DNA from: a virus
DNA length: 64,000 nt
IMG/VR virus record: IMGVR_UViG_3300033074_002003
Reading direction: 5' to 3' (one strand)
This document shows positions 35,703 to 53,792 of the stretch, in pieces (the stretch's first letter is position 1; every line of letters begins with the position of its first letter). The position numbers and the translations under genes were made by a program. A model generated the notes under the pieces. That model was not told the DNA's origin, ran no database searches, and saw nothing but the letters and a program-made list of their open reading frames with translations.

Positions 35703-35917
35703 GAGATCACCCTCAACACGCGAAAGATGTTGTCAGTCACCAAGTCAACGAGCGTTCCACGATAAGGATTCAACGAAGGAAAATAGAATTCGAGGCGGTC
35801 GTGACCGTAAGCAGCAGTCGTACCGCAGTACACAGCAATGCAAGCGCCAGTAACGCTCTCGAGCTCGAGAAAGTCGCCCGTCCTGTACACGCGCCTCTCC
35901 ACCTGTGTTTTCTTCAT
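35699..35917 (-). CDS. array-family small protein (YRTGDFLELE; ends LRVIS)
   Basis: ATGA coupling. Confidence 0.5.
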   Translation of the reverse strand: MKKTQVERRVYRTGDFLELESVTGACIAVYCGTTAAYGHDRLEFYFPSLNPYRGTLVDLVTDNIFRVLRVIS

Positions 35918-36120
35918 CGCGCGAGGATCCTGAACTGCCCATTGTGCGCAAACTGCCTGAATTTCACGACGCCCACGCCCGTCGACGCGAAGAACACGCG
36001 CAGTTCCTCGCCGTCGGGCCCACCAATCCAGACGCACATCCAGAGGGGCGTCCCTGGTTTCGAGCTCAGGTGCAGGTCGATGAGGTCGCCCGTGCGGAGC
36101 GATTGGTGTGACGCATTCAT
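35914..36120 (-). CDS. array-family small protein
   Basis: LRTGDLIDLHL...FRILAR; ATGA coupling. Confidence 0.55.
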   Translation of the reverse strand: MNASHQSLRTGDLIDLHLSSKPGTPLWMCVWIGGPDGEELRVFFASTGVGVVKFRQFAHNGQFRILAR

Positions 36121-36638
36121 CGAGCGAGGACCTTACCGAAGACGATAAACCCGTACGGGATCACGCGAGCGTAGAATTCACACATACCGATACGGTTTGG
36201 GAAATAAAACTGTGCTGAGACAGATTGTTCACCGCGAGGACCAAAGTAGATCCCGGGCGCGTCAACCTCCGTCCTCGAGAAGAGGTCACCCACTCGCAGG
36301 CGTCGAGGTTCCCACTCACCAACGGGACGAAATTCCGCACGGGGAAACCACATGACACCGCACTTCGGAACGTAGCGCGGGGGTTCTCTCCCACACCATA
36401 CCTGCCCGATCGAGCTACCATCGATCGCGATCACGCTCATCTCACTGCCACACCCGCGCGGGTACCAGCCGACGACCTCACCGCTCGCGACGAGAAAGAC
36501 CTCACCGCAGATCTCTACAAGCTCGAGGCCCGAGTGGATGTCGAAGTCTGTGGACATGTCGCTGAGCATATACTCAGCCTCTATCGCTGACGGCAGCGAC
36601 TGGCGATCTGGGTGCGGGAGTGAGACACTCTTCTTCAC
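36117..36638 (-). CDS. array-family protein, long form (173 aa, about 110-aa N-terminal extension)
   Basis: C-terminal half RLRVGDLFSRTE...GKVLAR; ATGA coupling. Confidence 0.5.
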   Translation of the reverse strand: MKKSVSLPHPDRQSLPSAIEAEYMLSDMSTDFDIHSGLELVEICGEVFLVASGEVVGWYPRGCGSEMSVIAIDGSSIGQVWCGREPPRYVPKCGVMWFPRAEFRPVGEWEPRRLRVGDLFSRTEVDAPGIYFGPRGEQSVSAQFYFPNRIGMCEFYARVIPYGFIVFGKVLAR

Positions 36639-36832
36639 CTGATGACGTACTCCCGTGCCGTCGTCTCGAAGTCGAGCCGCGCAAGATAAAGGGGCCCGTG
36701 CATATACTTCGGATGTGTCCAGATGTACATTGTGGAAAATTTTCCGGCGTCTGTGCGCGACGTCGTTTTCAGGACAACCGCGACGCCGAAGTGTTTGATG
36801 ACGAGGTCTCCCACACGGACAAAATCGATCAT
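36635..36832 (-). CDS. array-family small protein (YIWT subgroup)
   Basis: FVRVGDLVIKHFGVAVV...EYVIR. Confidence 0.55.
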   Translation of the reverse strand: MIDFVRVGDLVIKHFGVAVVLKTTSRTDAGKFSTMYIWTHPKYMHGPLYLARLDFETTAREYVIR

Positions 36833-37053
36833 CGCACCAACAGACACCCGTAGAGTGTCATGAGATCAACGCGCGTCATCTCACCGCGCCTTTTGGGCCC
36901 GCAGTCCGTGGTCCAGAGGTAGATTGCTGTGACACCTGAGGTACTGCTGTGGTCAAGTGTCATATCGAATAGCTCGAGCGCGACGGCAAATCCATGCAGT
37001 CGAACTAGCAAGTCGCCGGCACGGACGCAAGTGAAGTCTTGTGTGCACTTCAT
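36829..37053 (-). CDS. array-family small protein (YLWT subgroup)
   Basis: CVRAGDLLVRLHGFAVA...CLLVR. Confidence 0.55.
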   Translation of the reverse strand: MKCTQDFTCVRAGDLLVRLHGFAVALELFDMTLDHSSTSGVTAIYLWTTDCGPKRRGEMTRVDLMTLYGCLLVR

Positions 37054-37277
37054 CGCACGATCTCGTGCTCGAGGATGTCAGAGATTTGCATCTCACGGCT
37101 AACGTAGTGCTGTTCGGGATCGTCGGTCCAGAAGTACATGGTCCAGAAGTACGTTGTTGTGAAGCGTGGATTACCCGTGATGAACGGTCTCACCACGACG
37201 GCGATGCCCCTCTTCCTGATCACGAGGTCGCCGAGCCTGACGTACGGTATCAGCTTATCGGGCACCCTCGGTATCAT
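37050..37277 (-). CDS. array-family small protein (YFWT subgroup)
   Basis: YVRLGDLVIRKRGIAVVV...HEIVR. Confidence 0.55.
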   Translation of the reverse strand: MIPRVPDKLIPYVRLGDLVIRKRGIAVVVRPFITGNPRFTTTYFWTMYFWTDDPEQHYVSREMQISDILEHEIVR

Positions 37278-37501
37278 CGAACGACGCTGCTTTCCATGAT
37301 GCAGATCATGTTCATCGCCGAAATCGTACCCAATCTAGAATCGGTACGGTCGGTCCAGAGGTACATCACAGTGAAAAATCCGGGGGTGTCCTTGTGCTGT
37401 TCACGACCGATTTCGACCATGACAGCGAGTCCGGCAGCACGACACACGAGGTCGCCCGTCCTCACGAAGCGAGCGACGCGAACAGAGGGCCACGCGCTCA
37501 T
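37274..37501 (-). CDS. array-family small protein (YLWT subgroup)
   Basis: FVRTGDLVCRAAGLAVMV...SSVVR. Confidence 0.55.
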   Translation of the reverse strand: MSAWPSVRVARFVRTGDLVCRAAGLAVMVEIGREQHKDTPGFFTVMYLWTDRTDSRLGTISAMNMICIMESSVVR

Positions 37502-37698
37502 CTGACAATCGCCTCTCCACTGAGCATGATGTTTTTAATCTGTGTGGACGAACTGCGCCCAGAGGGCAGGAACACTACAGCGTTTGAGCGTTTGAGTGAC
37601 TCTTCGCCCCCGATGACGATGGCGAGGAAGTCGAATCGCACGACGAGATCGCCCACGAAGAACTGAACCCGTCCGTCATTGATATCGAACTTGATCAC
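37498..37698 (-). CDS. array-family small protein (GTG start)
   Basis: FFVGDLVVRFDFLAIVIG...EAIVR. Confidence 0.5.
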   Translation of the reverse strand: MIKFDINDGRVQFFVGDLVVRFDFLAIVIGGEESLKRSNAVVFLPSGRSSSTQIKNIMLSGEAIVR

Positions 37699-37913
37699 CT
37701 GACGATCCCCTTCAGCGCGCGCTGTGGGCCATACGCAGAAATGAACTCTGTCGAGAGGGACTCCCTCTCGTCCCACAAACCGCAGGCTCGCGTGGTGTTC
37801 CCGCTAACCGGTCCGATTACGACAGCGATACCATCTACTCTGATGACGAGGTCGCCAACGAACGTACGGTGGGTTGCGCCCGTGGGAATGTGCCACTTTT
37901 CTGCTCGCGTCAT
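37695..37913 (-). CDS. array-family small protein
   Basis: RTFVGDLVIRVDGIAVVIG...KGIVR; ATGA coupling. Confidence 0.55.
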   Translation of the reverse strand: MTRAEKWHIPTGATHRTFVGDLVIRVDGIAVVIGPVSGNTTRACGLWDERESLSTEFISAYGPQRALKGIVR

Positions 37914-38212
37914 CGCCATATTTGGTGCTTCTTCGTGAAGCGTGATTCCAAAATATAATGCAGCGGGAGGACCCTAGCACTGCGCAGGATGCAGTAGACC
38001 GGCACGTACCCTAGCGCACAGAATATAGTGAGGTCGCCGATGACCACACACACCGCTTCGTCACTGATCACAAGGTCACCCACCCTGAAATACTTCTGTG
38101 AACATCTCACCGAATGAGCCTCTCGTGCGCGCCCACAGTCCCCTTCACCTCGACGTCTCGAGTCACCCGTCATGAGAAGAGATCCGATTTCCGAGGACAA
38201 AATTTCGCTCAT
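37910..38212 (-). CDS. array-family small protein
   Basis: YFRVGDLVISDEAVCVVIG...HQIWR; ATG 4 nt after upstream stop. Confidence 0.5.
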   Translation of the reverse strand: MSEILSSEIGSLLMTGDSRRRGEGDCGRAREAHSVRCSQKYFRVGDLVISDEAVCVVIGDLTIFCALGYVPVYCILRSARVLPLHYILESRFTKKHQIWR

Positions 38213-38216
38213 CGGA

Positions 38217-38468
38217 TCACCTCCACACCCGGTCACCATCCACGAGCGTCTCATACGTGGTCGTTCTCGCCCAACGTGGGAGGTCCGCGCCGCCCGTGCG
38301 TTCGCAGAATCCCGTCGCGAGGCACAGCTCTAGGGGAATTTCTCTCCCACCCGTATCGTACGGGTCCCACTTCGTCTTAAAGTGACCCAAAATCACGTAG
38401 ACGTACGTTCGAGACACGAGGAGATCGCCGATCCGGAGACGGGTTCCTGTCTCGCGAATCTCGCTCAT
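38217..38468 (-). CDS. array-family small protein
   Basis: LRIGDLLVSRTYVYVILG...DRVWR. Confidence 0.55.
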   Translation of the reverse strand: MSEIRETGTRLRIGDLLVSRTYVYVILGHFKTKWDPYDTGGREIPLELCLATGFCERTGGADLPRWARTTTYETLVDGDRVWR

Positions 38469-38677
38469 CGGATCACGTATTCCTCTCCCATGACTCGGGA
38501 TGAGATGCTAAAGGTCAACCACAGCCAGCTTCCGTCACCGCGAGTGTAGAATCCAACCATCTCCGCGTTACCTCTTTCTGGATCCACACCGCACGTGATT
38601 AGAGTGCAGTTACGCCCAGCGAGGAGGTCTCCTACGCGTAAGTGCTGTGCGTTGTACTGATGTGTATCGGCGCTCAT
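38465..38677 (-). CDS. array-family small protein
   Basis: LRVGDLLAGRNCTLITCG...EYVIR. Confidence 0.55.
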   Translation of the reverse strand: MSADTHQYNAQHLRVGDLLAGRNCTLITCGVDPERGNAEMVGFYTRGDGSWLWLTFSISSRVMGEEYVIR

Positions 38678-38895
38678 CGCACGAAATCCTCTCCGCGACA
38701 GAGATAGTTTCCGATCTCTACTTTCCCGTAGTCTCGACTGTACCACCAACCGTAACAGACATTGAGGATCGTGTCGTTAGTGATCCCGCCCGTACCGCGC
38801 CGACCCGGTCGCACGACAACGCAAAGCGAGTCGGTGCGAATTATCAGGTCGCCCACACGATATTTCTCTACCCAGCGTCCCGAGGCGTCGCTCAC
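38674..38895 (-). CDS. array-family small protein (GTG start)
   Basis: YRVGDLIIRTDSLCVVV...EDFVR. Confidence 0.5.
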   Translation of the reverse strand: MSDASGRWVEKYRVGDLIIRTDSLCVVVRPGRRGTGGITNDTILNVCYGWWYSRDYGKVEIGNYLCRGEDFVR

Positions 38896-39107
38896 CTGAT
38901 CACCAAGTCTGGCCGCGCAAGCGCCTCTGCCCAGGTTGTCGTCTCCCACTCAACGTGTCTGTCGTTCCACCGATAGAATCCCGTTGTCATCACGACGGGC
39001 ACTTCATTTTCTTTTCCCTCGTCGCGTTCTGTGATCACGTAAATGTAGCGGAATGAGACGAGAAGGTCGCCGACGCGAAACTTACCAATAGTACCAGCAG
39101 TGCTCAC
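38892..39107 (-). CDS. array-family small protein (GTG start)
   Basis: FRVGDLLVSFRYIYVI...DLVIR. Confidence 0.5.
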   Translation of the reverse strand: MSTAGTIGKFRVGDLLVSFRYIYVITERDEGKENEVPVVMTTGFYRWNDRHVEWETTTWAEALARPDLVIR

Positions 39108-39292
39108 GAGATCACCTTCCAATCCTCCGAACGGTGCGCGGGCAATCTGATTCCCAACCAGCGACAATTATTGCTAACGTAGTTGAATCCCACCACAGAA
39201 CAGTAGGCATCGAAGGGCTCGTGTTCAACAACGACGTAGGTCGAAAGCCTGGTCACGACGAGGTCTCCGATCTGGAGTGTCATCGAGTTCAT
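39104..39292 (-). CDS. array-family small protein
   Basis: LQIGDLVVTRLSTYVVV...WKVIS. Confidence 0.6.
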   Translation of the reverse strand: MNSMTLQIGDLVVTRLSTYVVVEHEPFDAYCSVVGFNYVSNNCRWLGIRLPAHRSEDWKVIS

Positions 39293-39483
39293 CTCACCCT
39301 CTTCACGCCCGCGCGGGGAAAATCCAGCGAGGAAACCCAGTCTTCGCGCGGTACTCTAGTCCATCCCGGTGTTGTCCTGATCGCGGGCCAAATGCCATCA
39401 ACGTCGCGACCAACGATCACATAGAGGTCAAACCTGAATATGATCAGGTCTCCGACTCGCAGGCGTCGCTCCGCTTCACTCAT
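39289..39483 (-). CDS. array-family small protein
   Basis: LRVGDLIIFRFDLYVIVG...VKRVR. Confidence 0.6.
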   Translation of the reverse strand: MSEAERRLRVGDLIIFRFDLYVIVGRDVDGIWPAIRTTPGWTRVPREDWVSSLDFPRAGVKRVR

Positions 39484-39671
39484 CTTACCACCCGCGCGCT
39501 CGCATCACGGATGTCGAAGGCGCCCACGTCGAGGCCCACCCACTCGCACGAACCGCTCCTGCGATAGTAAAATCCCTTCGCTGTCCATATTCCCTTCTTC
39601 TCGCTGACGATCACGTAGAGAACGAGCGGAGTCACCACGAGGTCACCGATCCTGTAGCTGAAGCCGTTCAC
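39480..39671 (-). CDS. array-family small protein
   Basis: YRIGDLVVTPLVLYVIV...ARVVR. Confidence 0.6.
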   Translation of the reverse strand: MNGFSYRIGDLVVTPLVLYVIVSEKKGIWTAKGFYYRRSGSCEWVGLDVGAFDIRDASARVVR

Positions 39672-39871
39672 GAGATCGCCCTTCTTGCATCTGTCGCCCG
39701 CGCGCCGAGCCGAGTGCGGACCCAGTCCCAGCTCCCTCTCCAGTAGAATGACCCGACCACCGTGCAGAAGTCGTCACCGGGTCTGTGCTCGATTACAACG
39801 TAGGTTCCAGACTTCGATATGAGCAGGTCGCCGAATTTCACTTCGCGACCTGTGGACAAAATCTCGCTCAC
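39668..39871 (-). CDS. array-family small protein (GTG start)
   Basis: VKFGDLLISKSGTYVVI...RRAIS. Confidence 0.5.
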   Translation of the reverse strand: MSEILSTGREVKFGDLLISKSGTYVVIEHRPGDDFCTVVGSFYWRGSWDWVRTRLGARATDARRAIS

Positions 39872-40077
39872 CTGAACACTTTCCTTTCGCGCCGCGGCGC
39901 AGTGTGGTACCCATTGATCCACTCCCACCCGCTGCGAGTTGTGTAAAGCCCGATCGCCGTTCCGCAATCCGCGCGATAGTCTTCGCACCACTCACAGAAA
40001 ATCGCCGTCTCGTATTTAGAGACGATCAGGTCTCCGACGCGGAACGTAAATCCGGGTGACAATTTCTCTGCGCTCAT
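39868..40077 (-). CDS. array-family small protein (KLSP N-term)
   Basis: MSAEKLSPGFTFRVGDLIVSKYETAIF...RKVFR. Confidence 0.55.
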   Translation of the reverse strand: MSAEKLSPGFTFRVGDLIVSKYETAIFCEWCEDYRADCGTAIGLYTTRSGWEWINGYHTAPRRERKVFR

Positions 40078-40286
40078 CGGATCACCCGATCTGTTCTCAG
40101 CTGCTCCCTCGCGACATCGAGCATCCTGAATATCCAACTTCCGTACCTCGTCGAATACGCGAATCCTACTCCGCGTAAGCACCACGGATTTTCCTCTGAC
40201 TTTCCCACGATCACCCACGTTCCGACGTGGGTGATGAGGAGGTCACCCACCCTGAACCGCGCGGGGGACAAATTCTCATCGCTCAC
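40074..40286 (-). CDS. array-family small protein (ENLSP N-term; GTG start)
   Basis: VSDENLSPARFRVGDLLITHVGTWVIVG...DRVIR. Confidence 0.5.
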   Translation of the reverse strand: MSDENLSPARFRVGDLLITHVGTWVIVGKSEENPWCLRGVGFAYSTRYGSWIFRMLDVAREQLRTDRVIR

Positions 40287-40519
40287 GAGATCACTCTCGT
40301 CTCCGGACCCAGCCACCGCCAGACGGATATCACATCGTGGTTGTTCCACAACGATCTCCCCGTGCTCACGTTCCAGAAGAGCCCGGTCCCAAACCATTTA
40401 TTCTCGAGATCGGGTGTGGCGTCAGGATTAGCCAAGCGACCCACGATCACGTAAAGGAAAGAACTGTAGCTTGAACTGTAGACGATGAGGTCGCCCACTC
40501 GAAGTTCGACAGCGCTCAT
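40283..40519 (-). CDS. array-family small protein
   Basis: MSAVELRVGDLIVYSSSYSSFLYVIVG...TRVIS. Confidence 0.55.
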   Translation of the reverse strand: MSAVELRVGDLIVYSSSYSSFLYVIVGRLANPDATPDLENKWFGTGLFWNVSTGRSLWNNHDVISVWRWLGPETRVIS

Positions 40520-40746
40520 CTCACCACCCGTTCCCTCACGTACGTCGACGTGTGTACTCGAGTGCTCTCCCAGCACACGTCCTTAGCATTCCAGAAATAG
40601 AATCCCGTCGCGTCCCAGTACGATCGCGAAGTATCGGAGCTCCGACCCACGATCACATGGATACAGTATTTTCGCACGAGCAGGTCGCCGATTTTGAAGT
40701 TGTATGCATCCTCGTGGAGGATGGCGGGTGACAAATTCTCTCTCAT
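40516..40746 (-). CDS. array-family small protein (ENLSP N-term)
   Basis: MRENLSPAILHEDAYNFKIGDLLVRKY...ERVVR. Confidence 0.55.
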   Translation of the reverse strand: MRENLSPAILHEDAYNFKIGDLLVRKYCIHVIVGRSSDTSRSYWDATGFYFWNAKDVCWESTRVHTSTYVRERVVR

Positions 40747-40937
40747 CTGTAAATCTCGTGGTTCCACCCCGCCCACGTGTGAGCTGATGGCGCCCACACC
40801 GTGGGAGACGAAATTACAGGCGAACAGTAGACGAACCCAGAACACTCTGGCCACTCGTTCTCTCTTAACCCCACGATCACGTAGACGTAATCACGAGAGA
40901 CAAGGAGATCGCCGAGGCGAACGATCGGTTCGCTCAC
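40743..40937 (-). CDS. array-family small protein
   Basis: IVRLGDLLVSRDYVYVIVG...HEIYR. Confidence 0.6.
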   Translation of the reverse strand: MSEPIVRLGDLLVSRDYVYVIVGLRENEWPECSGFVYCSPVISSPTVWAPSAHTWAGWNHEIYR

Positions 40938-41134
40938 CTCACGACCCTCCCGCTAGCGTACTCACGGTACCATCCCGGAAAGTCCGAGAACCACCACCAC
41001 ACGTCGTTAGCCCAGTAGAACCCACTCATGTAGACATTCCCTTCGTGGGGCTCTTTGCTGTGCGGTCCGATCACGACCGCGGTCTCCTCGCCCATCACCA
41101 CGAGGTCCCCGACGCGGAATCTGCTCTCGCTCAC
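40934..41134 (-). CDS. array-family small protein (Trp-rich C-term GFYWANDVWWW; GTG start)
   Basis: FRVGDLVVMGEETAVVIG...GRVVR. Confidence 0.5.
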   Translation of the reverse strand: MSESRFRVGDLVVMGEETAVVIGPHSKEPHEGNVYMSGFYWANDVWWWFSDFPGWYREYASGRVVR

Positions 41135-41334
41135 GAGATCACCTCGTGGTCCCACGATGAGTGAACAACATTGTTTTCAAGCAGCGCACACCCGCCGCCC
41201 TTCACATAGACGATCCCAAATCCAACCGGCCACTCTCCCTCCTGTTTCACGATCACGTAGACATAGCTCTCCGAGATCGCGAGGTCTCCCAACCTGAGGC
41301 GACCGCGAGCCGCGCCCGAATCGGTGTCTCTCAC
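41131..41334 (-). CDS. array-family small protein (GTG start)
   Basis: LRLGDLAISESYVYVIV...HEVIS. Confidence 0.5.
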   Translation of the reverse strand: MRDTDSGAARGRLRLGDLAISESYVYVIVKQEGEWPVGFGIVYVKGGGCALLENNVVHSSWDHEVIS

Positions 41335-41543
41335 GAGATCACCCTCACGATCGCCGGACTGCTGGAGTGAATGCTCTTGTCGACCATCGACCGCGCGCTG
41401 CTCGGGTACCAGAAGCTGAACCCGCGAACGCGGCGTCGCGATTCGTCCGACCACGCGACGACAACATACAACCCGTACTCGCTGATGACTAGGTCACCGA
41501 TCCGGAGGCCGAACCGCCGGGGTGACAAATTCTCATCGCTCAT
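41331..41543 (-). CDS. array-family small protein (ENLSP N-term)
   Basis: MSDENLSPRRFGLRIGDLVISEYGLYVVV...VRVIS. Confidence 0.6.
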   Translation of the reverse strand: MSDENLSPRRFGLRIGDLVISEYGLYVVVAWSDESRRRVRGFSFWYPSSARSMVDKSIHSSSPAIVRVIS

Positions 41544-41740
41544 CGCACGACCCTTCCGCTAGCGATCTCTAGGTCCCACACCGAGTGGCTCGCGTACCAC
41601 CACCACTCGCCGTTAGCCCAGTAGAACCCGCTTATCGAGACACACTCTGCCTCCAGTTCTTCGCCCGAGATTCTGGTCACAACTGCGATCTCGTCGTGCA
41701 GGGCCACGAGGTCGCCCAGGCGGAACCTATTCTCGTTCAC
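41540..41740 (-). CDS. array-family small protein (Trp-rich C-term GFYWANGEWWW, near-duplicate of 40934..41134; GTG start)
   Basis: FRLGDLVALHDEIAVV...GRVVR. Confidence 0.5.
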   Translation of the reverse strand: MNENRFRLGDLVALHDEIAVVTRISGEELEAECVSISGFYWANGEWWWYASHSVWDLEIASGRVVR

Positions 41741-41961
41741 CGGATCACCCGCCTGTCCGTATACTGCAGGTCGTATGTCATCCAGTCGATGTTCACCCAC
41801 GCGCGCTCGCCCCTCAGATAATAGAGCCCGGCCGCCGGCCACACCCTCCGTACTCTGTGGCCGGTGATCACGTAGAGGTAGCGGTTCGTCACGATGAGGT
41901 CTCCCATCCTGTAGCTGAAATCGTCCGCGCAATGTGCGGGTGACAAATTCTCATCGCTCAC
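41737..41961 (-). CDS. array-family small protein (ENLSP N-term)
   Basis: MSDENLSPAHCADDFSYRMGDLIVTNRYLYVI...RRVIR. Confidence 0.6.
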   Translation of the reverse strand: MSDENLSPAHCADDFSYRMGDLIVTNRYLYVITGHRVRRVWPAAGLYYLRGERAWVNIDWMTYDLQYTDRRVIR

Positions 41962-42173
41962 GAGATCACCCTCACGATCGCCGAACTCCCTGGGTGGATG
42001 GCGTGTGTGGTCACCCGCTTCGCTCTGCTGGGTATCACGCCGTTACCGAAGAAGATCCCCAACCCAATAGCGTGTTCGTTCTCTTCCCCGAAAATCACGA
42101 CGTACGACCCGCGTCTCGTGATCACGAGATCACCGACACAGAGGCGACGAGCGGGTGACAAATTCTCTCTCAT
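41958..42173 (-). CDS. array-family small protein (ENLSP N-term)
   Basis: MRENLSPARRLCVGDLVITRRGSYVVI...VRVIS. Confidence 0.6.
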   Translation of the reverse strand: MRENLSPARRLCVGDLVITRRGSYVVIFGEENEHAIGLGIFFGNGVIPSRAKRVTTHAIHPGSSAIVRVIS

Positions 42174-42367
42174 CTCACGATCCTATGGTTCCAGTCGGCG
42201 CGCACCCAACTAACGGTCAGCCAGACAGGAAGCCCGCCCTCTTCTCCCCAGACGAACCCGCAGCATATGGCATGGGTGCTCTCGCCCCACACATCTCCCA
42301 CAACAACGTAGAGGTAACCCATCGAGACGATCAGGTCGCCCACACATATATGACGCTTCTCGCTCAC
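42170..42367 (-). CDS. array-family small protein (GTG start verified as GTGA overlap)
   Basis: VSEKRHICVGDLIVSMGYLYVVVG...HRIVR. Confidence 0.5.
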   Translation of the reverse strand: MSEKRHICVGDLIVSMGYLYVVVGDVWGESTHAICCGFVWGEEGGLPVWLTVSWVRADWNHRIVR

Positions 42368-42600
42368 GAGATCACCCGATCTTCGGGATACAGGTTCTTC
42401 TGGTCGAGCACCGCCCGGGCGAACTCCCAGCGACCCGTGTGGAGGACCCACATGAATCCCATCGCACCGTTGCACGTGAGATTCCACTCGGAGTATCCTA
42501 GGAACACCCACGTCCCGCGCACTGTGACGATCAGGTCGCCGACCCGCAGCGTAGAATTCCGCACTGGGACTCTGCACAATTCGGCCGTCCCGTCACTCAC
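42364..42600 (-). CDS. array-family small protein (GTG start)
   Basis: LRVGDLIVTVRGTWVFLG...DRVIS. Confidence 0.5.
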   Translation of the reverse strand: MSDGTAELCRVPVRNSTLRVGDLIVTVRGTWVFLGYSEWNLTCNGAMGFMWVLHTGRWEFARAVLDQKNLYPEDRVIS

Positions 42601-42863
42601 GCCCACCGGAATACCCTGCTTCCCCGACACGCATCAAGCCCGAGAATGTGAAATGACGTCCACTTCCAACACCCGTACCAGAGGTAGAACCCGCGCCCGA
42701 GTCCCGTATCGGTCACAACCAGGATCTCACACTCGTTGACGAGGAGGTCGCCGACACGGACACCGGTCTCGCCCGCGAGAATTGTCCCACGTGCACCGAA
42801 TAATTCGGCCTCCGCGCTCTCGTGAGGGGGTTGGGGATACTTGTCCATGGCTTGCAGACTCAC
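42597..42863 (-). CDS. array-family small protein, first gene downstream of the regulatory gap (ends RVFRWA)
   Basis: VRVGDLLVNECEILVV; GTG or internal ATG start. Confidence 0.45.
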   Translation of the reverse strand: MSLQAMDKYPQPPHESAEAELFGARGTILAGETGVRVGDLLVNECEILVVTDTGLGRGFYLWYGCWKWTSFHILGLDACRGSRVFRWA

Positions 42864-42870
42864 GAGAGTG

Positions 42871-42925
42871 GAATTGGGTGAGGGAATTTGAGCGAGGGTG
42901 ACGGGAGGGGGAATTGAGGGTGGGT
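42871..42925 (-). repeat. three tandem about 14-bp G-rich direct repeats (GGGAATT(T)GAG...GG) immediately upstream of 42597..42863
   Basis: ggaattgggtgagg / ggaatttgagcgagg / ggaattgagggtggg. Confidence 0.45.
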
Positions 42926-43032
42926 CGCATTTGCCACTCTATCACACACTGCAAGGAGTTGCACAGTCCCCTCTGTGCGAGAGAAACATCAGCGCTCCTG
43001 ATTCTGCACCCAAGAAAACTCACGGTGGCCTC

Positions 43033-43060
43033 CGAAAAATACCCGATCTCGGGTTTTTCG
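43033..43060. terminator. bidirectional intrinsic terminator-like hairpin (AAAAAT-ACCCGATCTCGGGT-TTTTT)
   Basis: GC stem CCCGA/TCGGG flanked by A-run and T-run; lies in 640-bp non-coding gap downstream of 43505..43702. Confidence 0.45.
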
Positions 43061-43242
43061 ACACACAGTGGGCCCTCTTTCGTACTCGCAGTCGTGTTTT
43101 TCGGTGCCCAACTCCACTCAGTCGATGTTGACCGCAGATTGTCGCTTGAGTGTGCGCAGTCGATCTCGATTCGACAGAGAAATCTCGGTGGGCGAGGCGC
43201 AACGGGTCGACCCGTTCACTTCCGATTGTCGTGAGTCTGCGC

Positions 43243-43431
43243 CTCAGTTGGGTCTCCCCGAGCAGGGGGGTAGCACCGGTGTCGAGACATGTGTTCTGTC
43301 CCTGCACATCACGAGTGGGAGTGGGCCCGCGGAGAGGGCGGGACGACCCGAGATTTTGCGCCTCGAGGCCCGTGAAATCTGCGGTGTGCACGCCTGCGCT
43401 CACCTTGGGTCTCCCCGAGCAGGGGTAGAAC
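43243..43431. repeat. two copies of a roughly 24-bp direct repeat TTGGGTCTCCCCGAGCAGGGG(G)TAG about 165 bp apart (each contains hairpin CCCC-GAGCA-GGGG)
   Basis: copies at about 43243-43266 and 43408-43431 in non-coding gap. Confidence 0.5.
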
Positions 43432-43504
43432 GCGGGTCGTCGGGAAGCGGGACGCGCCTCAGGAAGTCGAAAGCCACGAGGGTTGTCGATGCGATGGGGA
43501 CGCG

Positions 43505-43702
43505 TCATTGGGCGATCACCTCGAGCATTGTCGTGTGTACCACCAGCAGTCCTTCCAACCGCGGGTCTGAATCGTATACTTTGACGAGGCGGTGCGTGCG
43601 GCCGTCGAAGTGGAACAGGTGATTGTCGATCACGACAGCGAGTGTATGACTGCTCCACGTGAGATCGCACAGGTCACCGATCCTGAACTCGCGAGCGATC
43701 AT
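43505..43702 (-). CDS. array-family small protein (ends LEVIAQ)
   Basis: MIAREFRIGDLCDLTWSSHTLAVVI. Confidence 0.5.
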   Translation of the reverse strand: MIAREFRIGDLCDLTWSSHTLAVVIDNHLFHFDGRTHRLVKVYDSDPRLEGLLVVHTTMLEVIAQ

Positions 43703-43911
43703 CGTCCCACCAGAACCCTAATAAGGAGACCTGACGTGCAGTTGTCAAAGTATGCGGCGTGAGGTCCGGCCCAAAATGCTGTAACAACCGCGCGACTCGA
43801 GAAAAAGTCATCTTTGCTGTGGTGGACGACGACTCCAACCTCGCGCGTAGGTTCGAAATAGATGAGGTCACCGATGTGGCACTCACCAGCTCGGATTCGC
43901 GGGTGACTCAT
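43699..43911 (-). CDS. array-family small protein
   Basis: MSHPRIRAGECHIGDLIYFEPTREVGVVV...; ATGA coupling both sides. Confidence 0.5.
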   Translation of the reverse strand: MSHPRIRAGECHIGDLIYFEPTREVGVVVHHSKDDFFSSRAVVTAFWAGPHAAYFDNCTSGLLIRVLVGR

Positions 43912-44102
43912 CTTCCGCGCAGCTCCACGGGGAGCGTCCACAATCCCGCACCGCGCCTGTCGAACAGGATGCTGTCGAGGTTAACCCAAACACACTCACT
44001 CCGCATGCTGTCTTTTCGAATGACGATACCGAGCATGCTAAAGTACGTGAAGAGGTCTCCCACTCGGAGTTCGTGGATACTCATCGATGTGGGTGCCATC
44101 AC
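43908..44102 (-). CDS. array-family small protein
   Basis: LRVGDLFTYFSMLGIVI. Confidence 0.5.
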   Translation of the reverse strand: MMAPTSMSIHELRVGDLFTYFSMLGIVIRKDSMRSECVWVNLDSILFDRRGAGLWTLPVELRGR

Positions 44103-44323
44103 CTGATCACCCGCGTGATCTCGTCGCTGTAGATCAGTTGTCGGTTGTTCACGTAGTCACCCATCACGAAGTAGCACCCGATCGCTTCGACGGAGTCATA
44201 TGCTGCTGTCACAACAGCGAGCCCGTGGCGCGGCGTCCTCGCGCTCGCCGGCGACTGGGCAGTGATGAAGGTGACGCTAGGGACTGTGCGCGTGAGGATG
44301 AGGTCTCCCACGCGAGGCTTCAC
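44099..44323 (-). CDS. array-family small protein (GTG start)
   Basis: VKPRVGDLILTRTVPSV...TRVIR; GTGA overlap. Confidence 0.5.
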   Translation of the reverse strand: MKPRVGDLILTRTVPSVTFITAQSPASARTPRHGLAVVTAAYDSVEAIGCYFVMGDYVNNRQLIYSDEITRVIR

Positions 44324-44532
44324 GCGATCCTCGCCATCTCGTCGTGTTCGAAGCACAGGTCGGTCTCCCAGCGATGTCGCGGGTGTATCCAGAGAACCGC
44401 ACGGCTCCCGTCACCTTTGAATTCTGATTTGGGTGCGAGGACGATGCCGAGAGCACTGCTGAACACAGCAATGTGCTCCTCGACGATGACGAGATCTCCT
44501 ACTCTCACGTCTTCGGGACGACTGTACCTCAT
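44320..44532 (-). CDS. array-family small protein (ends MARIA)
   Basis: VRVGDLVIVEEHIAVFSSALGIVL. Confidence 0.55.
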   Translation of the reverse strand: MRYSRPEDVRVGDLVIVEEHIAVFSSALGIVLAPKSEFKGDGSRAVLWIHPRHRWETDLCFEHDEMARIA

Positions 44533-45444: not shown

Positions 45445-45618
45445 ATCTTCGTCCTCCCCACCCAGTGGGTGGTTCACGGGTTGTCACGTCCTCAGGTGGA
45501 CGCGGTGCTCCACGCGGGTTATGAGCCCGCGTTTGTCCTCGGGAGGGGACTTCACACATGTGTGGAGCTGCCCACCCTTTCCGGGTGGGGATTCTCTTGC
45601 TGTCCCGGAGGGGGACGA

Positions 45619-46796: not shown

Positions 46797-46877
46797 ATAG
46801 AGCTACCTTACCACAGCCTGAGAACGCAAGCACGCGGGTGTGGAGAGGCCGTTAACCCCACACCCGCGTGCAACTTG

Positions 46878-47702: not shown

Positions 47703-47846
47703 TGAATCCTCCTGGGCGGCACCTCGCCGCCATGACTCCGTTATACATCGACTCCCACACTCGGACACGCGATCGCGTCTGAAAGTGACTTTCAACCGGT
47801 GTAACCGCGAGTTCACAGTTGCGTCCCGCGTGACATCTCGGACGGG

Positions 47847-47858
47847 TGGATATAGAGT
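47847..47858 (+). promoter_or_regulatory. extended -10 TGGATATAGAGT, 6 nt before ATG of 47865 (leaderless)
   Basis: recurrent motif class. Confidence 0.4.
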
Positions 47859-47864
47859 CGGACC

Positions 47865-48383
47865 ATGACCAAACCCCACGACTCGAGGTATAGGAAGGTG
47901 CAGTTGGACCGCGGTCGCAAGGTCGTCGAGTGGTTCGGTGCCAAGTTCCAACCCACGGCAGGGACAGTCTTCCTCAAGGGAGACGAGGTCCAACTCTTGG
48001 ACGGCAGCAACGTCGACACCATCTACATCGGTCACTCGCGTGGGCCGACGCAGGTGGAGAAGTGGGCAAACACTGGGATCGTCGGGGGTGCACGCAACTG
48101 GGGGAAGACGGTGGACTCGTGGGCGAAGGTCGGGAAGCTGCCGACGCTCGAGGAAGCACGCACTCGCGAGGAGAAGGTGCGTGCGGTCACACACGTGCCG
48201 GTCGACAGCGTGAAGGTCCTCGAGGGGATCCTTGGCATGTTCCCCGTGCGCACGCTCGGGTCGGCAGTGCACGTCGAGTCCTGCCTCGACTCCGAGCTCC
48301 AGGCGCAGTTCGAGCGTGCACTGTCGCGCTCGTCCTTCAAACACCAGATGCTGGACGACGGTACGATGCTCGTCTGGAAATAA
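47865..48383 (+). CDS. hypothetical protein
   Basis: ORF track 172 aa; divergent from RecA-like gene. Confidence 0.5.
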   Translation: MTKPHDSRYRKVQLDRGRKVVEWFGAKFQPTAGTVFLKGDEVQLLDGSNVDTIYIGHSRGPTQVEKWANTGIVGGARNWGKTVDSWAKVGKLPTLEEARTREEKVRAVTHVPVDSVKVLEGILGMFPVRTLGSAVHVESCLDSELQAQFERALSRSSFKHQMLDDGTMLVWK

Positions 48384-48410
48384 GTCCGGTCGCGCGTGAA
48401 GCCACTGCCA

Positions 48411-48424
48411 CGGTGGTTTAGATT
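48411..48424 (+). promoter_or_regulatory. putative -10 GGTGGTTTAGATT with structured leader (hairpin GGCGG-TAATGCACT-CCGCC) and SD AAGGAGAGAGAAC
   Basis: upstream of 48476 gene. Confidence 0.3.
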
Positions 48425-48475
48425 GATGTTGTCAGGCGGTAATGCACTCCGCCGGAGAGACCAAGGAGAGAGAAC

Positions 48476-48775
48476 ATGGCCATCACGGACAAGCCCAAGT
48501 ACGGTTCGAAGAGCAGCCCCGATCCCGAGAAGCGCCACTTCTTCAAGTGGGCCGGCGAGAAGTCGGGCGAGGGCATCGGCACCTGCATGCACTGCGGCCT
48601 GCAGATGAAGTTCGAGGAGAACGGCGCGCGGGGCGGGAAGCACCGCGTGTACAAGAAGAAGGGCGAGCGCGCCTGGTCCGAGAAGGAGACCCAGTGCGTC
48701 GCCCGCTCGCGGTCGCTCGCCCTCGCGGCGAAGGAGCCGAAGCCCGCCAAGAAGGCGGCGAAGAAGGCCGCCTGA
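48476..48775 (+). CDS. small basic Cys/His protein (putative zinc-binding), paralog of 58764..59039
   Basis: shared H.FKW.....G.GIG.C.HC...LKF.ENG.RGGKHR.Y; Lys/Ala-rich tail. Confidence 0.55.
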   Translation: MAITDKPKYGSKSSPDPEKRHFFKWAGEKSGEGIGTCMHCGLQMKFEENGARGGKHRVYKKKGERAWSEKETQCVARSRSLALAAKEPKPAKKAAKKAA

Positions 48776-48830
48776 GACCTCGCGGAGACATCCTGAACAA
48801 CCCGTGCGGGTGACGTATAGTTATCCCCAC

Positions 48831-48915
48831 GGGTTGGATGCTCTAACGGTAGGGCAACGGGTTGTAGCCCCGTCAGACCTCCGGGTCTAAGCAGGTTCGA
48901 TTCCTGCCCAACTCA
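48831..48915 (+). tRNA. tRNA-Tyr (GTA), type II with long variable arm
   Basis: acceptor GGGTTGG/CCAACTC, anticodon loop TTGTAGC, variable stem AGACC/GGTCT, T-arm GCAGG-TTCGATT-CCTGC. Confidence 0.7.
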
Positions 48916-49036
48916 CAAAAAAAGCGGTGAACACCCGGGCTGTGCGCCATATACTATCTCTTGCGGGGTAGTGTACAGAGCACGTGCAGCCTCATAAGCT
49001 CACAGACCGAGGGGCAGCTCCCGGCGACCGCACCCA

Positions 49037-49681
49037 ATGTTGATTGTATGTGACGAGTGTGGAAAAGAATACCCTCCCAAAGGTATCGCCACACATAAAT
49101 GGCGAACTCACGGTGATGGAATTGGGTTCAAGCCAACGGGCAACAAGCGTGTGGTTTGGAATAAGGGCCTTACTAAAGACTCTGATATTCGTGTCGCTGT
49201 AGGAGCTGAAAAGCTTTCTGTCACGATGACACGACTCTGTCAAGAAGGCAAAATCAAACCACCATTGATGTCAGTAGAGCAACGACAAAAATTGTCTCAG
49301 CGGCAATCACTACATAACTCGGGCGGTAAATCACGATGGTATGAAGTCAGTGGACAAAAGGTGCAAGGACGCTGGGAACGTGATTTTGCACTAATGATGT
49401 TGAAGCTGGGCATCACATGGATCAAACCCAAGATCGGAAGAGATATTTGGCGCTACACTCGACTAGATGGCGTGATTAAATCATACACACCAGACTTCTT
49501 CTTAGAAGAACTCTCGTTGTTCATAGAGATCAAAGGTTTCTGGTGGGGTGCTGATCGCATAAAGATGAAGCTTGTTCAAGAACAATTTCCTGAACGTAAG
49601 ATAAAAATTATCGAGAGAGAGCTATATAATAAGCTCTTGCTTGCTGAAAGCAAATCTGATTTTCTTGGGATGTTAGCTTAG
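49037..49681 (+). CDS. AT-rich putative PD-(D/E)XK-type (homing) endonuclease with N-terminal Cys/His zinc-finger-like motif
   Basis: CDECGKEY...HKWRTHG; C-terminal PDFFLEELSLFIEIKG fits PD-x(n)-ExK; low GC versus flanks; 3-prime end overlaps tRNA-Phe. Confidence 0.45.
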   Translation: MLIVCDECGKEYPPKGIATHKWRTHGDGIGFKPTGNKRVVWNKGLTKDSDIRVAVGAEKLSVTMTRLCQEGKIKPPLMSVEQRQKLSQRQSLHNSGGKSRWYEVSGQKVQGRWERDFALMMLKLGITWIKPKIGRDIWRYTRLDGVIKSYTPDFFLEELSLFIEIKGFWWGADRIKMKLVQEQFPERKIKIIERELYNKLLLAESKSDFLGMLA

Positions 49682-49738
49682 ACGGTTAAGCGATCGGTTG
49701 AAACCCGGTAGTCAAGGATTCGAGCGCCTTACATCCCA
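49667..49738 (+). tRNA. tRNA-Phe (GAA)
   Basis: acceptor GGGATGT/ACATCCC, D-arm GCTT..AAGC, anticodon loop TTGAAAC. Confidence 0.8.
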
Positions 49739-49745
49739 CTAATTT

Positions 49746-49817
49746 CGCTGTGAGGTCGAGTGGTGAGACGTCCGCTTCATAAGCGGTAGGATGCGGGTTC
49801 GAGTCCCGCCACAGCGA
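49746..49817 (+). tRNA. tRNA-Met or Ile2 (CAT)
   Basis: acceptor CGCTGTG/CACAGCG, anticodon loop TTCATAA, T-arm GCGGG-TTCGAGT-CCCGC. Confidence 0.8.
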
Positions 49818-49832
49818 CGGTCCGAAAGATAC

Positions 49833-49912
49833 GCGCTCGTAGTCTAAAGGATAGGCAGCGGCTTCCTAAGCCGAGACGAAAGTCAATGTAGGTTCGAGTC
49901 CTACCGGGCGTG
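49833..49912 (+). tRNA. tRNA-like, candidate anticodon CCT (Arg) with 13-nt variable arm (GAC-GAAA-GTC)
   Basis: acceptor GCGCTCG/CGGGCGT (2 GU), T-arm GTAGG-TTCGAGT-CCTAC; D-arm weak. Confidence 0.4.
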
Positions 49913-49963
49913 CTGAGATTCGAGTGAGAGGAAGCTTCGAACCTCCCACTCGTTTTCTCTTAC

Positions 49964-50359
49964 GGGGGTGACAGGTTTCGACGGAGGAAAGGAGTCCCAC
50001 CTGCGAGCGAGCAGCAATCAGTGACGACTGCTCTGAAAGATGGCACTGACGCTTAAACGCGAACGATAACGGCACTTCTCTCGCCCTCGCGGCCTGAGCG
50101 TCCCCCGTAGCAAGAGATGAGCACTGTAGCTCTCGGGACGTCATCTACTGTGCATCTATGTGGGCGGCACCGGTCCGCTCTCAGAATTTCACGGTGTAGG
50201 AGCGTGCGGGTTTCGTTCCCCGGGCGCTCCGAAGTAGTGAGAACGAATGTGCGCCAGCAGAGGACTGTCGGACCGACGGTGATAGGTGAAATTCACATAC
50301 GCTCGTAGACGGTGAGATGAACTGACTTTCGGACGAGGGTTCGATTCCCTCCACCTCCA
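49964..50359 (+). ncRNA. ssrA: tmRNA (SsrA); tag ORF 50059..50097 encodes ANDNGTSLALAA
   Basis: 5-prime GGGGGTGACAGGTTTCGACGG, 3-prime GGACGAGGGTTCGATTCCCTCCACCTCCA with G3-U70 Ala identity pair; canonical AND...LAA tag. Confidence 0.85.
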
Positions 50360-50462
50360 CTGTAGTGAGCTCTGTGAGGAATGCAGAGAGCCCGTGACTA
50401 TCACGGTGCAACATGGTAAAGAGTTGTTAGGCGACGGTGAGTCGCGGTAACAAGGGAGCATC

Positions 50463-53786: not shown

Positions 53787-53792
53787 AGTCTC

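Follow-up and report, generated by a model that had tools for sequence, protein, structure and literature searches.

Why is a long tandem array of small phage genes broken at a single place by several hundred nucleotides of apparently non-coding DNA? We addressed this question in a window of 64,000 nt (the whole stretch of DNA that was analysed, to which all coordinates refer). Its source is an uncultivated jumbo phage of about 300 kb, and one relative is represented by a contig of 305,889 bp. The array comprises 36 contiguous paralogs that encode small beta-barrel proteins. The genes neighbouring the gap all lie on the minus strand, and transcription runs in that direction. Gene callers placed the start of the downstream gene at ATG 42848, not at GTG 42863, on more than 12 related contigs; thus, the gap was taken as 42849-43504. 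The GC3 periodicity of the flanking genes collapses across about 42870 to about 43440. The original prediction of a sizeable non-coding gap was right in that this is the only such break among the 36 paralogs, but positions 43504-43400 proved to be the tail of a truncated array gene.

The gap is present in about 8 lineages, and its rate of evolution is far below that of the paralog array around it. Contig L024 is diverged, and its one long match to the window (802 nt, 87%) covers the gap and the first ~190 nt of the downstream gene; the neighbouring array genes barely align. The number of array genes differs among otherwise near-identical genomes, with 0.3-1.9 kb of extra array genes in relatives. 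Megablast and blastn searches found no close relatives among GenBank phages, and the neighbouring RadA-like ATPase reached a best identity of only ~30% in them. We found nothing specific in the literature on similar jumbo-phage arrays. CarD/Mfd-like RNA-polymerase-binding domains were considered as an identity for the array proteins and rejected (best Foldseek E = 0.32; no profile match among PDB sequences; hhalign 8%). A replication origin in the gap was also rejected, since the cumulative GC-skew minimum lies at 46-48 kb, where gene orientation switches, away from the gap.

We suggest that two transcription units meet at the gap, in which a candidate terminator is followed by a promoter of a phage-wide family and a C-rich leader, and in which the direct repeats are relics of gene junctions. 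Judged from sequence features, this reading has a probability of about 0.6. The original prediction that the array is expressed as at least two units is supported by this anatomy, namely by a conserved family promoter and a unique A-run/hairpin/T-run. The features are listed in Table 1.

Table 1. Positions of predicted and observed features in and around the gap.
Feature	Position	Strand	Remarks
Start of a gene that is intact (64 aa) in relatives	43487-43508	minus	first 7 codons (MTRPHRI)
Truncated 3' remnant, last array gene of the upstream subgroup	43400-43486	minus	ends ...TTLVAFDFLRRVPLPDDPRSTPARGDPR before the stop TGA 43402-43400
Distal ~48-nt repeat copy	43394-43439	minus	core 43405-43425; SD-like GGGGAG, then GTGA (start overlapping stop)
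Inter-repeat interval	43269-43393	minus	part of 157-bp unit; hypervariable stretches and conserved islands 43300-43319, 43335-43360
Proximal ~48-nt repeat copy	43237-43284	minus	core 43248-43268, non-coding
Unassigned stretch	43399-43060	minus	about 340 nt; holds the proximal 21-mer
127-codon ORF	43403-43020	minus	candidate for translational coupling to the last upstream gene
106-codon ORF	42914-43234	plus	annotated by gene callers on several contigs
12-nt perfect inverted repeat	43229-43240 and 42854-42865	n/a	brackets the conserved core
A-run/hairpin/T-run	43035-43058	minus (symmetrical on both strands)	candidate intrinsic terminator for upstream-gene transcripts
Promoter (predicted)	42936-42964	minus	-35 GTGCAA 42964-42959; 17-nt spacer; extended -10 TGA-TAGAGT 42944-42936
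ATG of possible leaderless upstream ORF	42928-42930	minus	5 nt past the -10, where transcription is predicted to start
5' leader (predicted)	42849-42929	minus	81 nt; C-rich, G-poor, unstructured; no good Shine-Dalgarno
First downstream array gene	42597-42848	minus	83 aa; first ~18 nt and preceding 30 nt invariant in all lineages

An extended -10-like element had been noted on the minus strand, and our analysis confirmed it as TGATAGAGT at 42944-42936. Its hexamer TAGAGT (42941-42936) fits TANNNT, the TGA ahead of it makes an extended -10, and it lies on the strand of the downstream gene. We defined a promoter family from other sites in the window and trained a weight matrix on 9 of them, with the gap site excluded. 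The gap promoter, GTGCAA-N17-TGATAGAGT, matches the family consensus GTGACA-N17-TAGAGT with a matrix score of 12.0 (rank 18 of 127,908 positions). Sites scoring at least as high number 18 in the window, compared with 2.65 in shuffles. A match of this quality would arise by chance in the gap on the minus strand with a probability of 0.014, and no other match occurs on either strand of the gap. The score falls in the lower half of the family. The identical -35 variant GTGCAA is found at sites 61718 and 63742, and GTGCAG at 60762. Both hexamers are kept across the ~8 lineages, with TAGAAT as the -10 in L023 and L028.

Family sites followed by an ATG are more numerous than expected in the region 44-64 kb (8 vs. 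3.0 ± 1.5). Because this ATG stands 6-7 nt after the -10 in most members, most transcripts of the family are probably leaderless. The gap promoter has no gene start at that distance and, like few other members, is followed by a long leader. The motif GTGATANAGT was also tried on its own; it had 3 matches, all on the minus strand and one within coding sequence, and was replaced by the full promoter matrix. A literature search on the promoter hexamer returned nothing specific.

The predicted -35 element lies, in the minus-strand direction, ~70 nt downstream of a short hairpin flanked by an A-run and a T-run. The stem pairs ACCCG with CGGGT (43041-43045/43050-43054), the A-run occupies 43035-43039 and the T-run 43054-43058. 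In the minus-strand RNA the order is ACCCG-AGAU-CGGGU and then AUUUUU, and the folding energy, which includes an A/U extension of the stem, is -13.8 kcal/mol (z = -2.5); on the plus strand it is -12.3 kcal/mol (z = -3.0). The element thus has the G+C-rich stem-loop and the run of at least five U residues of an intrinsic terminator, with a short stem (5 pairs, 4 of them GC). It lies on the same strand as the stop codon of the last upstream gene and past the gene end, at the long distance of ~345 nt. The A-run/hairpin/T-run architecture occurs once in 64 kb against an expectation of 0.08, and the element was also picked up by a terminator scan. The general scan of 30-50 kb showed no enrichment of terminator-like sites (12 vs. 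13.5 expected).

Seven of 8 lineages have an intact hairpin. In L001/L002, one GC pair is lost with no compensating change, and the minus-strand energy is -8.6 kcal/mol (z = -0.55). There is no covariation to judge in the stem because the other seven lineages are identical there. The original prediction had called this element a bidirectional terminator. The A-run and T-run do stand on both sides, but no family promoter on the plus strand points into the hairpin, either from the gap or from the downstream array (top-40 matrix sites), so the element is bidirectional in structure only. A CCCG-N-CGGG palindrome was considered as a shared operator; it is mildly enriched in the window (23 vs. 13), but the gap copy lies outside the promoter spacers and the idea was dropped.

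The third part is the leader, and it is the unusual one. The leader contains 39 C and 9 G, including the most G/C-skewed 70-nt stretch of the window. Its C/G ratio over 78 nt is 4.6-5.4, and the local maximum of 5.43 is the highest in the window. It is also the least structured stretch in the window (minimum free energy -6.0 kcal/mol vs. -24.6 ± 5.4 for 275 same-strand windows; -3.3 to -6.0 in relatives), and its composition is kept across all lineages. The same tract had been described as three tandem GGGAATT(T)GAG-type repeats. GGAATT does occur at 42870, 42883 and 42910, but with spacings of 13 and 27 nt the copies are not tandem. An equivalent cluster appears in 5% of shuffles, and the tract is kept in all lineages. 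For the "G-rich triple repeat", a more fitting description is, in our view, a 5' leader on the transcribed strand that is extremely rich in C and poor in G.

On the plus (template) strand, the leader carries a canonical G-quadruplex motif (42896-42920; four tracts of at least three G, loops of 1-7 nt), one of 5 in the window compared with ~0.17 per strand in shuffles. The motif is kept in the window, L003, L004 and L023 lineages and lost in L001. No Shine-Dalgarno sequence and no conserved ORF was found in the leader, and a possible upstream ORF may cover part of it. This ORF, from 42930, is out of frame with the first downstream gene and has 67 codons here and 9 in L001/L024/L026. A 10-bp hairpin around the start codon of the downstream gene was rejected as a functional element, since it is present only in the window lineage.

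Such a leader could simply aid translation that is independent of a Shine-Dalgarno sequence. Another explanation is that Rho loads onto it and attenuates transcription, or that a phage antiterminator or RNA-binding protein targets it; either way, it would gate the downstream two-thirds of the hypervariable array. RhoTermPredict (PMC6407284) describes RUT sites by a 78-nt window with C/G > 1 and a C every 11-13 nt, and Rho-dependent attenuators occur in mRNA leaders (examples in PMC5314796). The leader fits this description (C/G 4.6 and a full chain of 7 spaced C residues). Like rut sites and Rho-dependent leader attenuators, it is a ~80-nt unstructured, C-rich and G-poor leader between a promoter and a start codon. 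No conserved pause hairpin was found downstream of it, and a possible leaderless upstream ORF may lie over part of it. Gating by the leader is a tentative idea, which we think unlikely. If it were true, expression of the two halves of the array would differ in time or with the state of the host, and the leaderless upstream ORF and the quadruplex-prone template strand could modulate the switch.

At its upstream end, the gap begins with the remains of a gene. The start of this gene overlaps, as ATGA, the stop of a 65-aa gene (43505-43702). The 100% identity of the window to its relatives stops at 43487, where the relatives go on with ...CATCGCATCGGTGACCTC; on this alignment, 43487 is the left edge of a deletion specific to this window. 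It is at this place that the relatives have their 0.3-1.9 kb of extra array genes. No record was found of the chimeric ORF that spans the deletion junction in the window. The minus-strand tail 43504-43400 matches the HMM of the upstream subgroup (hmmsearch, E = 3.9e-6), and the same tail ends the intact homologues P0003-P0006 and the 75-aa gene of L003. HMMs found no array-gene remnant in the gap other than the tail 43504-43403. The last upstream gene would survive in this window as a 33-codon remnant left by the deletion.

Two copies of a 24-bp repeat had been predicted in this half of the gap. Both exist, but the exact repeat is 21 nt long (TTGGGTCTCCCCGAGCAGGGG), at 43248-43268 and 43405-43425, 3-5 nt away from the positions first assigned. 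The 21-mer occurs twice in the window against an expectation of 0.01. It is the core of an imperfect repeat of ~48 nt (43237-43284 and 43394-43439) with an alignment score of 51, compared with 17.4 ± 2.3 in shuffles. The distal copy lies, in every lineage, inside the coding tail of the last upstream gene (...PARGDP(R/T) and the stop). The repeat resembles true gene junctions (CCGGGAGACGACAGATGAGG vs. TCGGGGAGACCCAAGGTGAGC), and the proximal copy resembles a decayed one, with CTGA in place of GTGA and an extra CC. If the extra CC is removed, the unit becomes 54 codons. One sister contig (L002) lacks exactly one 157-bp unit and with it the interval between the repeats, a one-copy form that is either real or a collapse at a 21-mer. 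The 21-nt repeats are probably leftovers of duplicated gene ends and not control sites. On this comparison, they would be two copies of a gene-end/gene-start junction (C-terminal codons, the SD-like GGGGAG and an overlapping stop and start), left by a tandem duplication, a process of the sort by which the array is built and eroded.

The 21-mer cores are nearly invariant in the ~8 lineages. Only 2 of 21 columns vary in the proximal copy, compared with 31% in the surrounding half, and the interval between the copies is 74% identical. In L003 and L010, both copies show one and the same T-to-A change. Near-invariant cores and a paired change of this sort could mean selection on the repeats, rather than relics.

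The repeats had originally been proposed as protein- or RNA-binding operators. In a wider form, this proposal holds that the 21-nt (48-nt) repeats are operators for a DNA-binding protein that would loop out the 157-bp interval, or else sites at the end of the upstream transcript for RNA-protein binding or processing. The invariant cores, the paired change and the exact match found twice count in its favour. However, the paired change in L003 and L010 equally fits gene conversion between the copies, and L028 has a substitution and an indel in its proximal copy. There are only two copies, with no further one elsewhere in the window or at any other position in 28 related loci (3-4 mismatches allowed), which is unlike operators or iterons, and the dyad is only 4 bp. 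The CCCC-GAGCA-GGGG hairpin predicted in each copy is present in the sequence, but its stability is like that of shuffled sequence (z = -1.3 and +0.8). Furthermore, the distal copy is coding in all lineages, both copies read like ordinary junctions of the upstream gene subgroup, and the only promoter-like site is 300-460 nt downstream of them, on the other side of the terminator-like hairpin. We therefore do not retain the operator proposal, and functional repeats of any kind appear quite unlikely.

Other sequence signals in the gap were few. The gap and the rest of the window have only chance-level 10-14-mers in common, and the enrichment of the short motifs CGAGAT, CGACAATC and AATTCC in the conserved core is within the shuffle range. 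The GerE/LuxR-type protein at 54681-54881 is real, and nothing was found that connects it to the gap.

The conserved core (about 43245-42849), or its distal half, might also be a structured non-coding RNA that acts itself, on either strand. None of 100 shuffles folds as well as the 397-nt core on either strand (z = -2.5 on minus, -3.3 on plus), the core is bracketed by two long-range helices with adjacent 3' arms, and it evolves much more slowly than the array genes. The helix 43097-85/42955-44 shows a compensatory double change in L023 and L028, but it carries a disruptive change in L024, and compensatory change affects only 1 of 118 pairs (covariation term +0.58). The 12-nt inverted repeat also forms a bracket, and its arms show 2 wobble-compatible, 2 disruptive and 0 compensated variants. 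Inverted repeats of at least 12 nt occur in 2.4% of shuffles and in 6 of 97 real window segments, so they are not rare. This repeat is probably not functional, and we rejected the long-range RNA bracket on its uncompensated disruptive variants. The fold of the distal part is weak (z = -1.1), Rfam gave nothing in the gap at the gathering score and only an 11.6-bit chance match up to E = 10, no family promoter leads into the core on the plus strand, and the predicted helices span the promoter itself. We consider an RNA that acts itself very unlikely.

We also examined whether part of the gap is protein-coding, through either the 127-codon ORF on the minus strand or the 106-codon ORF on the plus strand. 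The former has a GTGA/TTGA overlap as its start, with GGGGAG 7 nt ahead of it, and is open in most lineages (127-130 codons in all the two-copy lineages examined), but it was never called by gene callers. On the plus strand, gene callers annotated ORFs of 94-119 aa in L006, L007, L008, L010, L023, L024 and L028, but their length and position vary among contigs, and calling is inconsistent or absent. The GC content of the long gap ORFs is flat over the codon positions (GC1/2/3 of.60/.63/.58 vs..56/.44/.72 in array genes), and nearly all SNPs in them are non-synonymous, many of them radical. Substitution tests proved to have no power here and leave room for translation of the 127-codon ORF, because the real first downstream gene also shows no codon-position bias. 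The frame is shifted by a 1-nt deletion in the L001, L024 and L026 lineages, L028 has more indels, and neither ORF has a Pfam or PHROG match. On composition, indels and the lack of family matches, we rejected protein-coding ORFs in the gap, which we hold to be highly improbable.

Finally, the perfect 12-nt inverted repeat GCAGACTCACGA/TCGTGAGTCTGC flanking 363 nt could suggest a small non-autonomous, MITE-like mobile element inserted between parts of the array, but this explanation is close to refuted, as there is no target-site duplication in the sequence, no lineage with an empty site, a single copy per locus at a constant position with no second copy in the window, no occurrence of an invariant probe in 185,579 bacterial and archaeal genomes or in IMG/VR, and inverted repeats of that length in 6 of 97 window segments.

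The gap is most likely an ordinary terminator-promoter module with one unusual part, the C-rich leader. In this module, upstream transcripts would pass the stop of the last upstream gene and cross ~340 nt of sequence that is decayed and either untranslated or translated as junk, and a fraction of them would terminate at the hairpin and U-run (43054-43035). About 70 nt further on, a host-type RNA polymerase would restart at GTGCAA-N17-TGATAGAGT (42964-36), a site whose match to the family and conservation are observed and whose activity we infer. The same promoter family would drive many other genes of the phage. The new transcript would open with the 81-nt leader and then reach the ATG of the first downstream gene, and the leader would either keep the ribosome-binding region open without a Shine-Dalgarno sequence or load Rho to gate the downstream half of the array. 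The distal half of the gap (~340 nt) contains conserved islands of which this explanation makes no use.

These results give a testable transcription map for a large gene block in an uncultivated phage of ~300 kb. The analysis also revealed a phage promoter consensus, GTGACA-N17-TAGAGT, that is mostly leaderless and useful for annotating the rest of the genome. Should the leader turn out to act as a switch for Rho or antitermination, it would offer a clean natural case in which a phage gates part of a fast-evolving array; otherwise, the region is an inter-operon spacer of the ordinary kind.

Cortes et al. (2013, PMC3898074) have reported that promoters of M. tuberculosis have a TANNNT -10 with an extended TGN, that leaderless mRNAs occur, and that no -35 was found. 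The phage family is similar to such actinobacterial-type housekeeping promoters, since TAGAGT fits TANNNT with TGN ahead and, in most members, the ATG stands 6-7 nt past the -10, which implies leaderless transcripts. In contrast to M. tuberculosis, the phage family has a clear -35 (GTGACA). The promoter consensus hints at an actinobacterial-type host.

The array itself may be compared with T7SS immunity gene strings, which are reported (PMC9484751) to be tandem paralogue arrays evolving by homologous recombination between repeats. As in the strings described there, gene number varies between near-identical genomes, here by 0.3-1.9 kb. The deletion end points in conserved motifs and the direct-repeat-bounded 157-bp unit, present or absent in sister contigs, can be likened to the same account. 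The array proteins are unrelated to those of the strings, and the setting is a phage genome.

The gap resembles terminator-promoter intergenic modules, which divide phage or bacterial gene clusters into transcripts with separate starts (an intrinsic terminator, then a sigma-70-type promoter). It has the same order of stop codon, hairpin with U-run, -35/-10, leader and start codon; all parts lie on the coding strand, and the promoter fits the consensus of the genome itself. It differs from these modules in that the hairpin is short and ~345 nt from the stop, and in that its parts are predictions from sequence. It also differs in its setting: the gap sits in a tandem paralog array and is far more conserved than the genes it separates.

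We examined an array of small paralogous genes split by a non-coding gap at 42849-43504. The array comprises 36 contiguous genes on the minus strand (35914-44532), mostly with 4-nt overlaps, and the encoded proteins of 62-87 aa have only an R(V/I)GDL motif in common. No match to this family was found in Pfam, PHROGs or PDB. A typical member was predicted to form a five-stranded beta-barrel (pLDDT 81), and the model had no significant structural neighbours. The G+C content of the window is 59%, and no nucleotide relatives were found among GenBank phages. Exact look-up of two flanking-gene proteins retrieved many metagenome contigs, including one of 305,889 bp; the source of the window is therefore an uncultivated jumbo phage. 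Genomes with 95-100% identity elsewhere (the window and contigs L003, L023 and L024) vary in the number and content of array genes.

GC3 periodicity was strong in the flanking genes and was lost from about 42870 to about 43440, and the downstream gene (42597-42848) starts at the ATG at 42848 in every gene call. All sequence features listed in the original prediction were present. Gap-bearing relatives were gathered by a pattern scan and protein look-ups. The same gap was found in about eight distinct lineages (window, L003, L004, L023, L028, L001/L002, L024/25 and L026/27), with 86-98% identity to the window. For L024, the most diverged long contig, the sole long match to the window was the gap plus ~190 nt from the start of the downstream gene (802 nt, 87%), and the array genes around it were barely alignable. 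Between L023 and the window, identity was 94.6% in the gap, 94.2% in non-array genes, and 74-89% in those array genes that could be aligned at all. The gap is thus not ultra-conserved but is a stable island within a hypervariable array.

A consensus scan showed that sigma-70-like sites were enriched in 44-64 kb (8 vs 3.0 +/- 1.5 expected), several of them reading GTGACA-N17-TAGAGT. Listing all TAGAGT/TATAGT sites revealed a family usually with an ATG 6-7 nt past the -10 element, which implies leaderless mRNAs. This geometry is typical of Actinobacteria (PMC3898074). The family, cGTGAC(A)-N17-TAGAGT, appears to be phage-wide and would imply many leaderless mRNAs and a host polymerase of actinobacterial type. 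A similar site at 46468 on the minus strand probably drives the upstream unit. A weight matrix was trained on nine family sites, none of them from the gap. The candidate gap promoter, with TGATAGAGT at 42944-42936 on the minus strand, ranked 18th of 127,908 positions, and 18 sites reached at least its score vs 2.65 in shuffled windows. The chance of such a match in the gap on the minus strand is 0.014, and it was the only one there on either strand. Both hexamers are unchanged across all lineages, and the -35 variant GTGCAA is found in two other family members.

The palindrome CCCG-N(2-8)-CGGG is mildly enriched in the window (23 vs 13 +/- 3.7). It lies between the -35 and -10 elements of four family promoters (48801, 55277, 60746 and 62570), adjoining GGGTGG-TAGAGT, and also forms the gap hairpin at 43042; it may serve as a common operator, or it may reflect a preference in the spacer. 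The stand-alone GerE/LuxR-type protein has further matches to sigma-70 region 4 and to a PHROG with a sigma-factor annotation, and may modulate recognition of the -35 element.

Downstream of the promoter, the G-rich triple repeat of the original prediction is present as GGAATT at 42870, 42883 and 42910, but the cluster is only marginally unusual (matched by 5% of shuffles), and its RNA strand is a C-rich leader. With 39 C and 9 G in its 81 nt, this leader has the strongest G/C skew of any 70-nt stretch in the window (0.80, the next being 0.61), its C/G ratio over 78 nt is the window maximum (5.43 vs a 99.9th percentile of 2.9), and no other of the 275 windows sampled on the same strand is as unstructured (-6.0 vs -24.6 +/- 5.4 kcal/mol). 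All lineages retain this composition in spite of about 10 substitutions, and the leader satisfies published rut criteria (PMC6407284). No good Shine-Dalgarno sequence was found in the leader. An ATG coincides with the predicted start of the transcript and could, depending on the lineage, begin a leaderless upstream ORF of 67 or 9 codons. The template strand carries a canonical G4 motif, one of only 5 in the window (vs ~0.17 per strand in shuffles), which is lost in L001. The leader could be either a Rho-loading attenuator or merely an open, SD-independent ribosome landing site.

The candidate terminator and the -35 element downstream of it are about 70 nt apart. This genome has few hairpins followed by a T5 run, yet they are enriched (6 vs ~0.7 expected), and the A-run/hairpin/T-run architecture occurs once in the window, only here (0.08 expected). 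The hairpin is intact in 7/8 lineages, one GC pair being lost in L001/L002. The element had been called a bidirectional terminator; its structure is indeed symmetrical, but "bidirectional" holds as a structural description only, because nothing suggests opposite-strand transcription into it. Strong G+C-rich hairpins without U-runs (46797-46877 and 45571-45589, minus-strand reading, e.g. CACGCGGGTGTGG...CCACACCCGCGTG) sit in intergenic regions of the upstream minus-strand unit and may be U-less terminators or RNA-stabilising structures.

Coordinates of features in and around the array
Feature	Position	Strand	Remarks
Candidate terminator	43035-43058		A-run/hairpin/T-run; from sequence
Candidate gap promoter	42964-42936	minus	GTGCAA-N17-TGA-TAGAGT; matrix score 12.0
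Family -10 elements	47853, 53139, 55295, 60133, 60762, 61083, 62582, 63215	plus	range 47830-63510
Family-like site	46468	minus	
Other canonical G4 motifs	42233-42259, 31164-31187	minus	
Other canonical G4 motifs	52521-52542, 62311-62334	plus	
Plus-strand ORF	42914-43234	plus	called by gene callers on some contigs
Minus-strand ORF	43403-43020	minus	coupled to last upstream gene; open 127-130 codons in most lineages
tmRNA	49964-50362	plus	phage-encoded; tag ANDNGTSLALAA
Six tRNAs	48831-49913, 59096 and 62015		
GerE/LuxR-type HTH protein	54681-54881	plus	stand-alone, 66 aa; Pfam E=1.5e-14

In the relatives, the genes adjoining the gap on its upstream side make up a subgroup with the ending ...LP(x)DDR*, and the last of them ends ...PLPDDPRSTPARGDP(R/T)*. 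The minus strand of the window at 43504-43400 encodes RVPIASTTLVAFDFLRRVPLPDDPRSTPARGDPR* and matches the subgroup HMM (E=3.9e-6). Judged by its sequence, the distal end of the gap is the remnant of an array gene. Between the 65-aa gene (43505-43702) and this remnant tail, relatives carry 0.3-1.9 kb more genes, so the window has a specific deletion of that size at 43462-43508 when compared with every relative that was fetched. The deletion joins the initial 7 codons of one array gene to the tail of another in a different reading frame and creates a 162-codon chimeric ORF ending at 43020. No independent assembly confirmed this junction; several contigs are interrupted or diverge at the position corresponding to 43462, as a variable point should.

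The exact repeat is a 21-mer, TTGGGTCTCCCCGAGCAGGGG, at 43248 (proximal to the downstream gene) and 43405 (distal), two copies vs 0.01 expected in the window, embedded in an imperfect repeat of about 48 nt. In every lineage, the distal copy encodes PARGDP of the remnant tail. Its minus strand has an SD-like GGGGAG, 7 nt and then GTGA (start overlapping stop), which is the coupling junction found throughout the array, and it resembles true subgroup junctions (CCGGGAGACGACAGATGAGG vs TCGGGGAGACCCAAGGTGAGC). The proximal copy carries CTGA instead and is longer by a CC; minus the CC, the inter-copy unit is 54 codons, the size of the smallest array genes. We read the 21-mers as probable relics of a tandem junction duplication. 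Against this, hardly any variation is seen in either core, whereas identity in the interval is 74%, and L003 and L010 share a T-to-A change in both copies (window positions 43255 and 43412). This parallel change suggests that the copies undergo gene conversion or are co-selected; gene conversion would account for the shared change but not fully for the near-invariant cores. In L004 and L011 the change is confined to the distal copy. Sister contigs L001 and L002 agree at 704/705 shared positions; the difference between them is exactly one 157-bp unit (window equivalent 43269-43425), arising through either recombination between the 21-mers or assembly collapse of L002 at k=21. As for the proposal that the repeats are operators, the coding and junction-like nature of the distal copy, the instability of the CCCC/GGGG hairpins and the lack of further copies in the window or related loci speak against it.

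Three long ORFs cross the gap, none with a family match. In the plus-strand ORF, SNPs are nearly all non-synonymous, the called length varies by contig, and the frame is shifted in L001/L002. The minus-strand ORF has flat GC1/2/3 (.60/.63/.58 vs.56/.44/.72 in array genes) and radical substitutions, and a 1-nt deletion alters its end in three lineages. Because the first downstream gene, which is genuine, itself lacks codon-position bias (24/25/29 variable columns), substitution tests are powerless here, and the ORFs may possibly be translated as "junk".

A structured RNA appears unlikely. On both strands the fold of the 397-nt core is more stable than those of shuffled sequences (z -2.5 and -3.3), and its covariation comprises one compensatory pair vs several uncompensated breaks. 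The 12-nt inverted repeat bracketing it is not rare, the core belongs to no Rfam family, and no second copy was found anywhere. The gap shows no origin-like skew.

The proposed division of the array into two transcription units is well supported by its anatomy and by the comparative data. Two peculiarities remain: the leader, with its extreme rut-like character, and islands of conservation within the ~340-nt distal half that lie outside the proposed explanation. Otherwise, as far as sequence comparison can tell, the gap is an ordinary terminator-promoter-leader module of known type.
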